In this document: positions 47,840 to 54,491 of the stretch, piece by piece
Layout of the letters: the number at the start of each line of letters is the position of its first letter
Numbering within the stretch: the first letter of the stretch is position 1
Assembly (NCBI RefSeq): GCF_009931435.1
Contig: NZ_CP043415.1
Origin: Escherichia coli
GTDB taxonomy: Bacteria > Pseudomonadota > Gammaproteobacteria > Enterobacterales > Enterobacteriaceae
DNA: 64,000 bases
Direction: 5' to 3' (one strand)
The notes under the pieces: model-generated
The model's database searches: none
Seen by the model: the letters and a program-made list of their open reading frames with translations, nothing else
Told to the model about the DNA's origin: nothing
Program-made: the position numbers and the translations under genes

Positions 47840-48220
47840 GATGTTTTCCTCCGTTGTTCACATATTCCGCGACACCGGGCGGTGCCGTGCCTCCATAAAA
47901 GCCGGGCGATAAGGCGGGGATGCACAGGGCGCAAGGGAAGCCGCAGCCTGACGCACACGGCTGACGGGAGTTGGAGGGTGAGACAGCGAAATCTGAGCGG
48001 GTGAACGACCGGAAAATCACGGCAGACGGGAAGGAGGGACCGGGTGACCGCAGCGGCGAAGCGTACCCTTGCATCCCTGCCAGCCCGGCTAAGATGGAGG
48101 CACGGCACAGCCCGCACACGACACGGCGGCCACATAACTGAAAATCCACAAGGCCATGCCCCGCATGGCTGGGTAAAGCGGAGCCGCCGGCGACTTCCTT
48201 TGTGCTCTGTCCGGGGACCG

Positions 48221-48248
48221 GCAGGAAAAAGGCGGGGATTTCCCCGCC
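48221..48248 (-). terminator. Rho-independent terminator after the 256-aa gene
   Basis: Minus strand GGCGGGGAAATCCCCGCC followed by TTTTT. Confidence 0.5.
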
Positions 48249-48252
48249 ATCA

Positions 48253-50421: not shown

Positions 50422-50804
50422 ACAAAACGCCTTCTCTTACAGAGGGCACCGGGAGGGCACCCCTGTGGTGCCCGTTCCCCGCTGCCTGTGGGCTGTTCAC
50501 CGCGTCCGGTAACGGGTCAGGCCGACCGTGGAATACCGCAGCCGTCGTCTGTTTGACGGCAAGGTTATGCCGCGAAAGCGGCTTGAAGGGCGTTCATCAG
50601 AAAAGGGCGACAGGCTGGCGTACACTGTCACCGACGCCAGCCGGGAGCGGTAAAAGCGCCCGTCCCGTGCCCGCCGGACGCGGGACACTGACCACAGGCA
50701 GCGTTTATGCCGCGCCGCGTCAGCCGGCGCAGTAAAAAGAGGAGCATGGCGACATCCTTTACCGGAAAAGAAACGGGCAGTTGCCCGCCCGTCTCCGTCA
50801 TACT

Positions 50805-51707
50805 TCATCCACCGTAATGCGCCACCTTGTCGACTATCCACGCAGGTCCGGTGACTTCCGGCAGCTCATCGTCATCTGTCGGGGAAGACCATTCCAGTTC
50901 CCCCCACAGCACATCAACAAGCTCTCCACGCTCATATCGCTGCCAGCCACAGAAATTGCAGCCCTGTTCGGCGTACCAGTGCTCCAGCGTGCAGCCGAAA
51001 CGGCGGCTTAATTCTGCAACAACGTCGCTTTCCGGCTGACACCACGGCGTGTCGAAATCCACCTGAATGAAGTTTTCCCCCTGACTGCTGATATTCAGGT
51101 CATACCCACAAGGCCACTTCACGCCATACCGTTCTGTATACCAGTGATATGCAGAAGGAACACCGTTCAGAACACCACCGTTAAAGCCATTCACTTCAAC
51201 ATCCAGGCGGGTCGGCAGAACCGTCAGCAGGTCAAACGGCATGGTTTTTTCCGGCACTACGTTGTCACACAGACGGTTCCACCACACCGATACATCCTCG
51301 TTACCCCAGATGTCACACCAGTCACCTCTTTTTGCGGTGAAATGCACAGTGATGGTTTCCCTGACATCATCCGGTAACCCTTCCCAGCGACGCTGTCCAG
51401 TACCGCTCTGCAGCCAGAGTTCATGCAGCATCAGGCAGTTTTGCTCATCCAGCAGTACACCGTTCTGCAGGTGTGTCAGCCAGCGGGTGAACGCGATATT
51501 TTCCGTCGATACAGCACCACGTCCGGCAGCCGTCACTCCGGGGCACTGCTCAGAGCGGATATTTTCAGTGATCTGCAGAAGTCCGGCACTTCCGGCCAGA
51601 AACAGCTGAATACCTTCATTTGTGGCGCGGCGATAAAACGGTGTGACTGCACCGCTGGCCCGTCGTTTAATCTCAGCAATCTGTGCCGGTTCACCAGAAA
51701 AATGCAT
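50805..51707 (-). CDS. Hypothetical protein, 300 aa; ATG sits at the predicted 3' end of the group II intron
   Basis: ORF track; Trp/Cys-rich; no family assigned. Confidence 0.6.
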   Translation of the reverse strand: MHFSGEPAQIAEIKRRASGAVTPFYRRATNEGIQLFLAGSAGLLQITENIRSEQCPGVTAAGRGAVSTENIAFTRWLTHLQNGVLLDEQNCLMLHELWLQSGTGQRRWEGLPDDVRETITVHFTAKRGDWCDIWGNEDVSVWWNRLCDNVVPEKTMPFDLLTVLPTRLDVEVNGFNGGVLNGVPSAYHWYTERYGVKWPCGYDLNISSQGENFIQVDFDTPWCQPESDVVAELSRRFGCTLEHWYAEQGCNFCGWQRYERGELVDVLWGELEWSSPTDDDELPEVTGPAWIVDKVAHYGG

Positions 51708-54096
51708 ACGATCGGGTAGCAGTGATGCATTACTGCATCACCGCCCCCTAAGAACCGTACGTGCCAGTTTCCCGGCATACGGCTCAAGCCTTTCTAAGCC
51801 CACTCTCATGAGCCGGTTTCACTACATGTATACCTTTCGCATGAACAAGTGTGTGACACATCGGATGCAGCATAATCAAATTGGAGAGGCAGTTGCTCCC
51901 TCCATCGACTCGCCGTATGATGTGATGAACCTGCCACTGGGAATCAGATGTAATCCTCTCATCACATATGGGGCATCGGCCCCGCTGCTCAAACCAGATT
52001 TGAATGAGCTTTTTCCGTCCTTGCAGTTTGTGCCGCATTTTGTCTGCACAACGCTCCTCAAAGTACATCTCCCATTGAGGATCGAACGGATTAGCTGCAA
52101 TTTTAATCGGTTTAAACCGGTTGATAGGCGTATCGATTGCTTTCCTCAGATTTGCATACTGAGGCTTACCGTTGGCAAGGAGTTCTCCGGTAGCCGTGGA
52201 GAAAGACCAGTTTCGGGCACCTTGTTGATGGAAATATCTTTTCCGAATCCACTTCTTTCCCTTATTGGGATGACGCCGAACAGCCCAACGCCATAAAGCC
52301 AGCCAGATCTCATTGTCAACTTTGTTAAATGCGACCTTGGCCACAATGTGTTGATGGTAAGCCGCCCACCCTTTGATCATTGGGTTCAGCATGCGGATCA
52401 ACGTAAGCTGATCCATAGCTTTGTTGCCTTTGATTACAGCGCGTATTTTCTTTAAAAAGGAACTGACATTGGCTTTAGAGGGTTTGATCAGCATCTTACC
52501 GCCATATTTGCGAATGTTCTGTCCAAGAAAATCAAATCCTTCCTCGATATGTGTGATTTTCGTCTTTTCCGGAGAAAGCATTAATCCTCTTTCAGCCATA
52601 AACCGCCTGACGACGGGTAATACCTGAGACTCAAGAAGTTCTTTTGACTCTCCAGTGATAATAAAATCATCAGCATATCTCACATAGTTAACTTTCGGGT
52701 TAACCAATCGTCCCTTGACTGTTCTCTTTTTAAACTCCGAAGCAAGAAGCGCCTCCAGTCCATCCAGAGCAATGTTAGCCAGTACAGGAGAAATTATTCC
52801 CCCCTGAGGAGTTCCTGAATTTACAGGGAATAACTGCCCCTTTTCCCTGTAACCCGCTTTAAGCCACTTTGTCAGGATTTGTCTGTCTGTTGAGGTGTTA
52901 TCGATTAGCCATTGATGAGATATATTGTCAAAGCATCCCCGTATATCCCCCTCAAGCACCCATTCAGCGGATGTTTTCTGCGCAAGAACACAGAAGCACT
53001 GTGCTATCGCATCTGCAGTAGACCTTCCAGTCCGAAAGCCGAAGGATCTCTGGTCAGCAGTGACTTCAGCAACGGGCTCAAGAGCCAGCAAATACAACGC
53101 CTGCATCGCCCGATCCTTCATAGTGGGTATCCCAAGGGGACGAGACTTCCCATTTGACTTAGGTATATAAACCCGCTTAAGTGGCTGTGGTTTGTAACCA
53201 CGCCGTTTCAGCAGGTTAATAGCAAGAAATTTAACCTCCGGGGAAGACCATGTCTGACCATCAACCCCAGGAGTACGTTTCCCGCTATTCTCTGTAACTC
53301 GTCTGACAGCAACTGCTCTGCCACTAAACGAGTGAGTCAGTATCCATTGCAAGGATTTGACCTTGCCATGTTTACCTTCTCGTGTTGCCTTTACGATACG
53401 CGCTTGCAGTCTCCGCACTTCCCGATAGCACTGACGCCAGTTGATACTGTGCCAGGAGTCACCGTTAAGTAAGGACGCACCTTTACAGGTTGTAGCCTGC
53501 TCAGTCATCTGCTTTTCCTTTCTGGAAGATTACTCAAACTCTCTCGTAATGAAAGACCCAGTGGAAGTCTGCCCGCTTTCGCGTAGGGTAATGTTGCCGG
53601 GCTCAACCCTTATCCGGTCCATTACAGACTGGCATTCGCTTTTTCCACCTTCTTTTACCCGCACCGCCAACAGTATCCCTTGCGGTTAACCTGCCTCACG
53701 AGGCAGCGATACGGGCTTACCATGTTCCACCTGAATAACAACAGTAGGTTAGACTCTGCTCACAACACCGGTGGTTTATTGTCCGTGTACCCCTAGCAAA
53801 CAGAGGAGTAACCAACCACATACCTTTTGGTTCAAGCCTGTCAGCATCTTTGGCTTGTTCTGGTTAACGACGCTTCAGCAGTTCACATATGTTAGTCATG
53901 CTACCGAGCCTAGACCTCCTCCGCCTGATGCTGGCAGATTACATGTAACCTCACGGTTTCATGCGATCCGAAGATCCGGTTTCATTGTCCTGACAGCTTC
54001 ACACCCCACCGTTACCAGTGACGCATGTGTCAGTAGGCTACTGATGACGGAACATCAGGTTCCCTGACGGAATCGAACTCCGCTGGAACAATTATT
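51708..54096 (-). mobile_element. Group II intron (3' boundary approximate)
   Basis: 5' end GTGCGAC (complement of 54096-54090); domain V GAGCCGTATGCCGGGAAACTGGCACGTACGGTTC at 51752-51785; internal RT ORF. Confidence 0.8.
51784..53508 (-). CDS. Group II intron-encoded reverse transcriptase/maturase with C-terminal HNH endonuclease
   Basis: 574 aa; YADD motif; maturase region; HH...C..C HNH-like C-terminus. Confidence 0.95.
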   Translation of the reverse strand: MTEQATTCKGASLLNGDSWHSINWRQCYREVRRLQARIVKATREGKHGKVKSLQWILTHSFSGRAVAVRRVTENSGKRTPGVDGQTWSSPEVKFLAINLLKRRGYKPQPLKRVYIPKSNGKSRPLGIPTMKDRAMQALYLLALEPVAEVTADQRSFGFRTGRSTADAIAQCFCVLAQKTSAEWVLEGDIRGCFDNISHQWLIDNTSTDRQILTKWLKAGYREKGQLFPVNSGTPQGGIISPVLANIALDGLEALLASEFKKRTVKGRLVNPKVNYVRYADDFIITGESKELLESQVLPVVRRFMAERGLMLSPEKTKITHIEEGFDFLGQNIRKYGGKMLIKPSKANVSSFLKKIRAVIKGNKAMDQLTLIRMLNPMIKGWAAYHQHIVAKVAFNKVDNEIWLALWRWAVRRHPNKGKKWIRKRYFHQQGARNWSFSTATGELLANGKPQYANLRKAIDTPINRFKPIKIAANPFDPQWEMYFEERCADKMRHKLQGRKKLIQIWFEQRGRCPICDERITSDSQWQVHHIIRRVDGGSNCLSNLIMLHPMCHTLVHAKGIHVVKPAHESGLRKA

Positions 54097-54491
54097 CAGG
54101 CGACTTCATGTCGCACATTTGAGCACCAGTTTGGCATGGGAATTCTCCTCTCACATGCGGCCTCCACCAGGCCGTGCCGCACCTGTAACCGGGCGACCGC
54201 ATACGAATGCAGGTGCGGCCCCGAAGCCGCAGCGCGTGGAGGAGGAACGACGAAACGTGACCGGGTGAGGAGGCCGGCGACAGCGACACACTTGCATCGG
54301 ATGCAGCCCGGTTAACGTGCCGGCACGGCCTGGGTAACCAGGTATTTTGTCCACAGAACCGTGCACAAAATGCTGTGGATAAGCTGGACACAGCCGTCCA
54401 CAGCAGGCATACAGCCACACCCTCAGAGAATTGAGCGTTTTTTAGTCACAATAATGACATTTGACTGTGTGTGGATTCAGTTATTAGAATA

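Follow-up and report, generated by a model that had tools for sequence, protein, structure and literature searches.

A GC-rich spacer upstream of a plasmid methylase gene as a probable class-3 single-stranded-DNA promoter

What is the role of a long, GC-rich and palindromic gap in front of a DNA methylase gene? The question is raised by a spacer in an Escherichia coli plasmid sequence of 64,000 nucleotides (the whole stretch analysed, hereafter called the window). A preliminary description had seen there a structured stretch without an open reading frame, and had proposed a promoter or a regulatory RNA. The spacer is located at nt 50422–50804, which is the exact gap between the start of a 227-aa methylase gene and the stop of a 300-aa DUF1281 gene. 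It abuts the start of the minus-strand methylase gene, and the location given for it, directly upstream of the methyltransferase, was therefore correct. Its GC-richness was confirmed as well (383 bp, ~64% GC, 0.62–0.66 across 200-nt windows), and the palindrome that had been quoted is present, with GGGCACC at 50455–50461 and GGTGCCC at 50467–50473. Besides this palindrome, the spacer contains a longer inverted repeat of 30 nt (50480–50509 with 50674–50703), which encloses 164 nt. The minimal free energy of the 383 nt folded as single-stranded DNA was −103.1 kcal/mol, as compared to −78.3 +/− 4.3 in shuffled sequences (z −5.74; none of 100 shuffles was as stable), and that of 345 nt was −96.0 kcal/mol. 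The complementary strand had an identical folding z in the window sequence. The main features of the locus are the following.

51707 to 50805, minus strand: DUF1281 gene, 300 aa, the neighbour upstream of the spacer.
50769–50796, minus strand: terminator-like RNA hairpin, then UUUUCC, located immediately past the DUF1281 stop (z −2.6; −22.2 kcal/mol when folded as RNA).
50422–50760, plus strand (transferred, template strand): the class-3 element, delimited by alignments, with the methylase start codon at one end and the GAGGAGC..GCGACATCCTT motif at the other.
50430–50436, minus strand: Shine-Dalgarno sequence GAGAAGG, 8 nt before the methylase ATG, read from the sequence.
50421 to 49738, minus strand: methylase gene, 227 aa, N6/N4 DNA methylase, the putative driven gene.

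Counterparts of the spacer on conjugative plasmids

The window corresponds to the leading region of an IncFIA/FIB/FIC plasmid, of which near-identical records exist. In the best-matching record, traM, traJ and traY are on the low-coordinate side, which places oriT at ~33.1–33.4 kb of the window. The psiB, ssb, antirestriction protein and methylase genes come after the oriT side, on the minus strand. With traM and traJ at low coordinates and a minus-strand orientation of the leading-region genes, the plus strand is, according to the known polarity of F transfer, the transferred strand here and the template for these genes. The spacer was found at 95% identity or more in all of the best 5,000 matching plasmid records, and the genera among these records were Escherichia, Salmonella, Klebsiella and Shigella.

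Comparison with characterised plasmids revealed ~97% identity between the spacer and the region 5′ of M.EcoGIX in pESBL-EA11 (96.6% over 649 nt, flanks included), and ~95% identity with the corresponding region of F. When all three sequences were aligned together, the mean column identity was 95%, and the methylase itself was 94% identical to M.EcoGIX of pESBL. Wen et al. (Nucleic Acids Res 2025, PMC12672017) report six operons induced in pESBL transconjugants with a large hairpin upstream of each, and the hairpin 5′ of M.EcoGIX, unlike all others, is named “class 3”. The same article describes pESBL start sites mapped by 5′RACE and strong induction in transconjugants, a class 3 start site in agreement with the hairpin prediction, the conservation of classes 2 and 3 in F, and early induction from RNA-seq in pESBL and F. 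A transcript, one of the checks that the preliminary description had called for, is thus provided by the published start site of the 97% identical pESBL copy. The screen in that article selected hairpins below −75 kcal/mol, and the fold of the present spacer passes this threshold (−103.1 kcal/mol for the 383 nt). In the available text of a preprint (10.64898/2026.01.09.698686), an element called ssp3 was swapped in as a single-stranded DNA (ssDNA) promoter, with a strength equal to that of ssp2 and no roadblock activity. This text gives no location for ssp3, which is taken here to be the class-3 element.

Because of its homology to the pESBL and F copies, and with ssp3 taken as class 3, the spacer is a copy of a known, characterised element. 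From these comparisons, it is very likely the class-3 ssDNA promoter of the methylase, active on the transferred strand during conjugation. One report counts against a promoter at this place: in preprint 10.1101/2025.04.03.647016, no probable promoter was recognised by inspection ahead of the gene cluster that comes next after ardB, a spot that we take to be the present spacer. The element was already known, and since it was published in December 2025 the novelty of its recognition is low. The covariation-supported architecture, the test for the strand of selection and the candidate key bases reported below are additions to the published work.

The present copy shares with pESBL class 3 and F ssp3 (taken as the same element) its sequence (~97% and ~95%), downstream gene, strand, place in the leading region and large fold. 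It differs from the F copy in having a DUF1281 gene and a terminator-like hairpin upstream, as in pESBL, whereas F is without an intact annotated DUF1281 gene between the sop genes and the element. The hairpin at 50769–50796 is consistent with an insulator, which would shield the methylase operon from upstream transcription. It failed the T-run rule of our consensus scan for terminators, whose total was zero, and in divergent homologs unrelated hairpins occupy its site.

A covarying fold and the strand that carries it

Methylase homologs sharing 77–87% identity led to ten further contigs. Seven of them contained a homologous spacer, 74–79% identical (Edwardsiella, Pectobacterium, Klebsiella, two Serratia and two metagenomes). 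At the Salmonella (L005/L006) and Erwinia (L009/L010) loci, a class-2-like hairpin, and not class 3, was found before the same methylase family, upstream of 2501. A scan with the invariant block, using one genome per species, detected 29 more copies in 22 contigs, from genera that include Citrobacter, Raoultella, Cedecea, Buttiauxella, Erwinia, Enterobacter and Hafnia; the same scan of viral contigs gave no match. Downstream of these copies was the methylase in at least 16 cases, DUF1281 in three and short ORFs without Pfam match in two. The class-3 copies before DUF1281 genes belonged to Citrobacter and Escherichia sp. (L017, L031, L035). As class-2-like hairpins can precede the methylase and class 3 can precede DUF1281, promoter modules have been exchanged between leading-region genes. 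The genes upstream of the element vary from locus to locus (HsdM, plasmid-stability, ParG, UmuD-like peptidase, unannotated ORFs), which indicates that the element belongs to the methylase operon and travels with the downstream gene.

In the alignment of ten sequences, conservation began at the start codon and ended with the GAGGAGC..GCGACATCCTT motif (~50760), and none was seen beyond it among the divergent homologs. RNAalifold predicted a fold made of P0, P1, a conserved mismatched internal loop, P2, P3 and a three-way junction leading to the P4-P5-P6 and P7-P8-P9 branches. Its parts are as follows, all on the plus strand.

50455–50473: P0 hairpin, GGGCACC-CCTGT-GGTGCCC, in the predicted 5′ UTR; compensatory changes in four of seven pairs (10 sequences) and three of four scored pairs (35 sequences).
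50480–50491: P1 left arm, CGCTGCCTGTGG, pairing with 50692–50703 (probability ~1.0 with DNA parameters, four compensatory pairs); proposed template for the transcript start.
50503–50510: P2 left arm, pairing with 50673–50680 (probability ~1.0; four compensatory pairs with 10 sequences, five with 35).
50512–50524: left strands of P3 (ACGGG) and P4 (TCAGGCCG), a continuous template, complement of CTGACC/TTGACC (alifold, 10 and 35 sequences).
50527–50574: apical branch P5/P6, CGTGGAATACC..GCCGT / ACGGC..GGTTATGCCGCG, almost invariant; one P5 pair and two P6 pairs compensatory.
50569–50582: alternative mini-hairpin GCCGC-GAAA-GCGGC (probability 0.76 with DNA parameters).
50583–50586: P4 right strand, TTGA, tentatively the first four bases of the −35 box.
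50613–50642: P9 hairpin, GGCTGGCGT / ACGCCAGCC (probability 0.9–1.0, compensatory changes).
50664–50668: right strand of P3, an invariant CCCGT whose initial CC would complete the −35-like hexamer.
50673–50680: P2 right arm, within the 18-nt spacer between the −35-like and −10-like hexamers (covariation).
50684–50689: −10-like GACACT, consensus [G/C]ACACT, on the non-template arm, in the internal loop 50681–50693 that faces 50490–50502.
50692–50703: P1 right arm, CCACAGGCAGCG, putative downstream duplex of the pseudo-promoter (inverted repeat, DNA-parameter fold, covariation).
50738–50760: small P11 hairpin with the GGAGC-N-GCGAC motif, which closes the element on its 3′ side (alifold, motif scan).

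With ten sequences, 98.1% of the cells were paired and 18 of the 84 pairs were compensatory, as compared to at most three in slid controls. With 35 sequences, down to ~74% identity, the same branched architecture was recovered; 96.4% of the cells were paired, and compensatory changes affected 20 of 67 pairs, against 4–8 in the slid controls. The number of compensated cells in this larger set was 125, versus 42 +/− 5 in shuffles. Covariation had been proposed as a check in the preliminary description, for which the lack of a conserved structure would have told against the idea; the structure proved to be conserved, with compensatory changes. In the left strands of P3 and P4, GGGTCA was invariant, and P4 comprised one compensatory pair and two that alternate between G.T and A-T. 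The branch 50517–50661 was more conserved in sequence than pairing alone requires.

A G.T pair on one strand is an A.C mismatch on the other, so that the distribution of intermediates between two pairing states reveals the strand on which the fold is selected. Four pairs were found in both the C-G and T-A states, and for these, the intermediates on the plus strand were 50 G.T and a single A.C. The consensus fold energy was −83.7 kcal/mol on the plus strand, versus −59.8 on the mRNA-sense strand. For the pairs predicted on both strands with ten sequences, 13 G.T were counted against one A.C. When this stricter test was applied to 33–35 sequences, the difference was not significant (12 versus 13 cells; 7 versus 3 pairs). 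The two predictions diverge at 33 sequences, which accounts for these counts, and the test on intermediate states was used instead. Overall, the fold is selected in the transferred plus DNA strand and not in the mRNA, as would be expected of an ssDNA element and not of a regulatory RNA.

Putative promoter boxes

How might a folded single strand serve as a promoter? The plus strand would enter the recipient 5′ to 3′ from oriT (~33.2 kb), and for this reason the methylase gene would enter before its upstream spacer. Once single-stranded, the spacer would fold into a long, imperfect and branched hairpin, part of which would mimic a duplex sigma-70 promoter. The host RNA polymerase would then initiate on the left arm, around 50487, and transcribe toward lower coordinates, to produce a transcript with a 66-nt leader followed by the M.EcoGIX-like methylase operon. 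Synthesis of the complementary strand would iron out the hairpin, and the promoter would be lost. As a consequence, the methylase would be made only in a short burst upon entry.

Positions of the boxes can be proposed from the consensus fold. The −10 box would be GACACT (50684–50689), a hexamer of the mismatched loop whose A(−11) and T(−7) would be unpaired in advance. Its second base, A, and its sixth base, T, were constant (33 of 33 sequences each) and unpaired, the A facing a C and the T facing a T, and 14 nt of stem separated the hexamer from the end of P1 in 32 of 33. The A at position 2 and the T at position 6 of the −10 hexamer are the bases that sigma-70 flips out of the non-template strand. 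A50685 and T50689, invariant and unpaired, are therefore candidate key bases. The predicted start is at ~50487 +/− 2, 7 nt after the −10-like hexamer, with the RNA on the minus strand, and the leader of ~66 nt would contain P0 and the Shine-Dalgarno sequence.

The template 18–19 nt upstream of the −10-like hexamer reads GGTCA(A/G), and its partners in the consensus fold are TTGA (50583–50586, P4) and CC (50664–50665, P3). The −35 box may tentatively be read as TTGACC, joined across the three-way junction from these two segments; it would exist only if P4 stacks on P3. In duplex form the site reads CTGACC-17-AACAGC, without the key −10 bases, and the absence of a usable −10 in the duplex would explain an activity restricted to the single-stranded state. 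The hexamers are weak, GACACT matching the −10 consensus at three of six positions, and the 18–19 nt spacer to the proposed −35 is long. A scan of both strands with the sigma-70 consensus found no match of at least 9 out of 12. With DNA parameters, P3, P4 and P7, which the −35 model needs, had a probability of 0.07–0.2, versus 0.76 for the alternative mini-hairpin. The minimal free energy structure obtained with these parameters disagrees with the alifold junction, and several of its helices are not kept in homologs. Covariation cannot settle the junction helices, because they are nearly invariant.

Two other candidate boxes were rejected. A hexamer TA[A/C]A[C/A]T, conserved across the last T of the P9 stem and the beginning of its loop, was the best match on the transferred strand in our own PWM scan. 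As a working −10 it would be an apex hexamer without downstream duplex or separate template, and with no −35 at 15–19 nt. As a −35, TTGACG (50553–50558) was discarded for its lack of conservation and its position inside the covarying P6 stem.

Related elements, other readings and significance

Frpo/ssiD of F and ssi1–3 of ColIb-P9 are ssDNA promoters of class 1 (Masai and Arai 1997, Bates 1999, Couturier 2023). Published Frpo/ssi and candidate sequences, taken from Supplementary Table 2 of Samuel et al. 2024, were compared to the window by BLAST. Matches were found for class 1 at 35523–35872, 42893–43242 and 46243–46573, for F ssiE at 33965–34153 and for the Frpo'4 type at 47869–48204. No class 1 or class 2 homology was detected at 50422–50804 with the five known and the candidate sequences (E<0.01), nor was any found when the spacer was compared by BLAST to the rest of the window. 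Class 3 resembles class 1 in being a transferred-strand hairpin of 300–350 nt, placed 5′ of leading-region genes and active only when single-stranded. It differs by the lack of detectable sequence similarity and of an A/T-rich apex, and by its branched shape, as opposed to a single long stem. The GGAGC..GCGAC flank motif is common to class 3 and the three class-1 copies of the window.

This motif, written GGAGC-N(3-12)-GCGAC, occurred at 35902, 43272, 46605, 48180 and 50741, that is five times in 64 kb, whereas 1.7 occurrences are expected over both strands. All five are on the plus strand, at the 3′ flank of ssDNA promoter elements (three of class 1, one of class 2 and one of class 3); some class-3 copies of other genera are without it. 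F is described as having only two class-1 copies, whereas the window has three. The third Frpo-like copy (46243–46573, plus strand) is 77.5% identical to F ssiD and lies upstream of a DUF3560/SAM-methyltransferase cluster, and an Rfam AS-pc01 match (45997–46096) adjoins it.

Class 2 (ssp2, called “Frpo3” by another group, and Frpo'4 of Samuel et al. 2024) is a GC-rich hairpin located 5′ of klcA/ardB, with its hexamers on the 3′ arm in the sense of the transferred strand. Like class 3 as read here, it has mismatches inside the −10, followed by a perfect stem. Its sequence is different, and its boxes are readable on one continuous arm (TTGCAT-15-TAAGAT). Class 2 is also a roadblock to strand conversion, and ssp3 is not, according to 10.64898/2026.01.09.698686. 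The class-2 copy of the window is in the spacer 47840–48252 (plus strand), 5′ of a klcA/ardB-type antirestriction gene, and shares 97% identity with F and 82% with Frpo'4. Its best Frpo'4 match is at 47869–48204, with TTGCAT-15-TAAGAT on the 3′ arm and three mismatches inside the −10. This spacer is probably the one that the preliminary description had counted as the first of two GC-rich spacers.

Another class-2-like hairpin was noticed at 54150–54340 (plus strand; TTGCAT-15-TAACGT, z −3.2), ahead of the point where the DUF1281 gene originally began, in a region 97% identical to the one just upstream of the DUF1281 gene in pESBL. It is not one of the six promoters listed in PMC12672017. A group II intron occupies ~51711–54117 on the minus strand (Rfam domains at 51711–51787 and 53913–54059, reverse transcriptase at 51784–53508), and appears to be inserted ~20 nt into the DUF1281 gene.

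Three other readings of the spacer were weighed against that of an ssDNA promoter. Could it simply encode a protein? A RefSeq entry, WP_032236158.1, places a 103-aa hypothetical protein at 50497–50808 on the minus strand, whose translation would be coupled to that of the DUF1281 gene through an overlap, ATGA. The annotation is found in thousands of plasmids, and the ORF is intact in the window and in pESBL; the minus strand of the spacer also contains a 114-aa ORF starting with GTG (50497–50841) and a 57-aa ORF starting with ATG. Taken literally, the claim that the spacer lacks an ORF was therefore wrong. In effect it was right, because the annotated frame is broken in plasmid F (1-nt insertion) and in all seven divergent homologs (indels of 1, 2, 4 and 11 nt, and stop codons), and its product matched no Pfam family, so that the spacer is effectively non-coding. 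The product moreover has many Arg residues and a low complexity, which a chance ORF in GC-rich DNA would be expected to show, and gene callers place no gene at this position in the divergent loci. A coding function is hardly credible, and on these sequence comparisons the hypothetical protein is very probably a spurious call. In thousands of plasmid records its annotation covers the promoter hairpin, and a few records call a feature at this locus “arginase”. Nearly as improbable is a structured 5′ UTR or cis-regulatory RNA (riboswitch, thermometer or attenuator) made from a conventional upstream promoter. The arguments for it are that both strands fold equally in the window sequence, that alifold on the mRNA-sense alignment pairs an upstream CUCCUC with the Shine-Dalgarno sequence, and that a C.A of P0 on the plus strand in eight related sequences would be a G.U in RNA. 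They are outweighed by the excess of G.T over A.C (50 versus 1), which favours the plus strand, the template and antisense to the mRNA, and by an mRNA-sense consensus fold 24 kcal/mol weaker. No Rfam family was found even at a permissive threshold (best score 19.6 bits, against a gathering score of 138), and most of the structure is upstream of the predicted start. The element is separated from the upstream gene by a terminator-like hairpin, the consensus scan found no duplex promoter, and PMC12672017 describes the published start site as fitting the hairpin prediction. Of the initial alternative, a promoter or a regulatory RNA, the first term was kept, as a promoter of the special ssDNA type, and the second was abandoned.

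The third reading, compatible with a promoter, is that the spacer is mainly a single-strand initiation (ssi) signal, whose folded strand recruits primase or primes from an RNA polymerase transcript, methylase expression being secondary. We consider it unlikely, although better founded than the two others. It draws on F ssiE (33965–34153, plus strand, 97% identical to D90180, z −3.3), which adjoins oriT and has no minus-strand gene downstream. F ssiE was reportedly defined (Nomura et al. 1991) as a priming signal, and not as a promoter. The apical domain of class 3 aligns locally with it with a score of 51, versus 24 +/− 3.5 in shuffles, none of 300 shuffles reaching that value. The shared segments are GTTATGCCGC-AAAGCGGC-TGGAAGG .. 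TAC-ACTG .. CCGA-GCC .. GAAGCGG, on the same strand and folded in both. The excess of sequence conservation over pairing in the branch 50517–50661 points in the same direction, as does a CTG that is invariant in an unpaired loop, CTG being the start trinucleotide of DnaG. Frpo (class 1) transcripts, too, serve as primers for DNA synthesis in vitro, and probably do so in vivo as well. However, only ~90 nt of ssiE align, and it is without P1/P2, −10 loop or downstream gene, whereas the class-3 element is always followed directly by a correctly oriented gene, whose start codon is 60–69 nt from the predicted transcription start in almost every copy. In 10.64898/2026.01.09.698686, moreover, ssp3 was used as a pure promoter replacement, without roadblock activity. 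From its sequence, ssiE may descend from a class-3-like element, as a relic or as a module put to new use. The class-3 promoter could then be made of two modules, a conjecture that we hold as rather unlikely: a core pseudo-promoter (pre-melted nACACT with A(−11)/T(−7) unpaired, and the stitched TTGACC), and an apical module homologous to ssiE, for instance for priming or polymerase recruitment, which would have been reused at oriT without a promoter. This two-module reading is absent from the text of the cited papers.

With the spacer read as a class-3 ssDNA promoter, A50685 and T50689 become direct mutational targets that stem from the comparative analysis. More generally, ssDNA promoters set the first seconds of expression after the entry of a resistance plasmid. 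The class-3 promoter would contribute by driving a promiscuous, single-strand-specific methylase, which protects the incoming plasmid from restriction.
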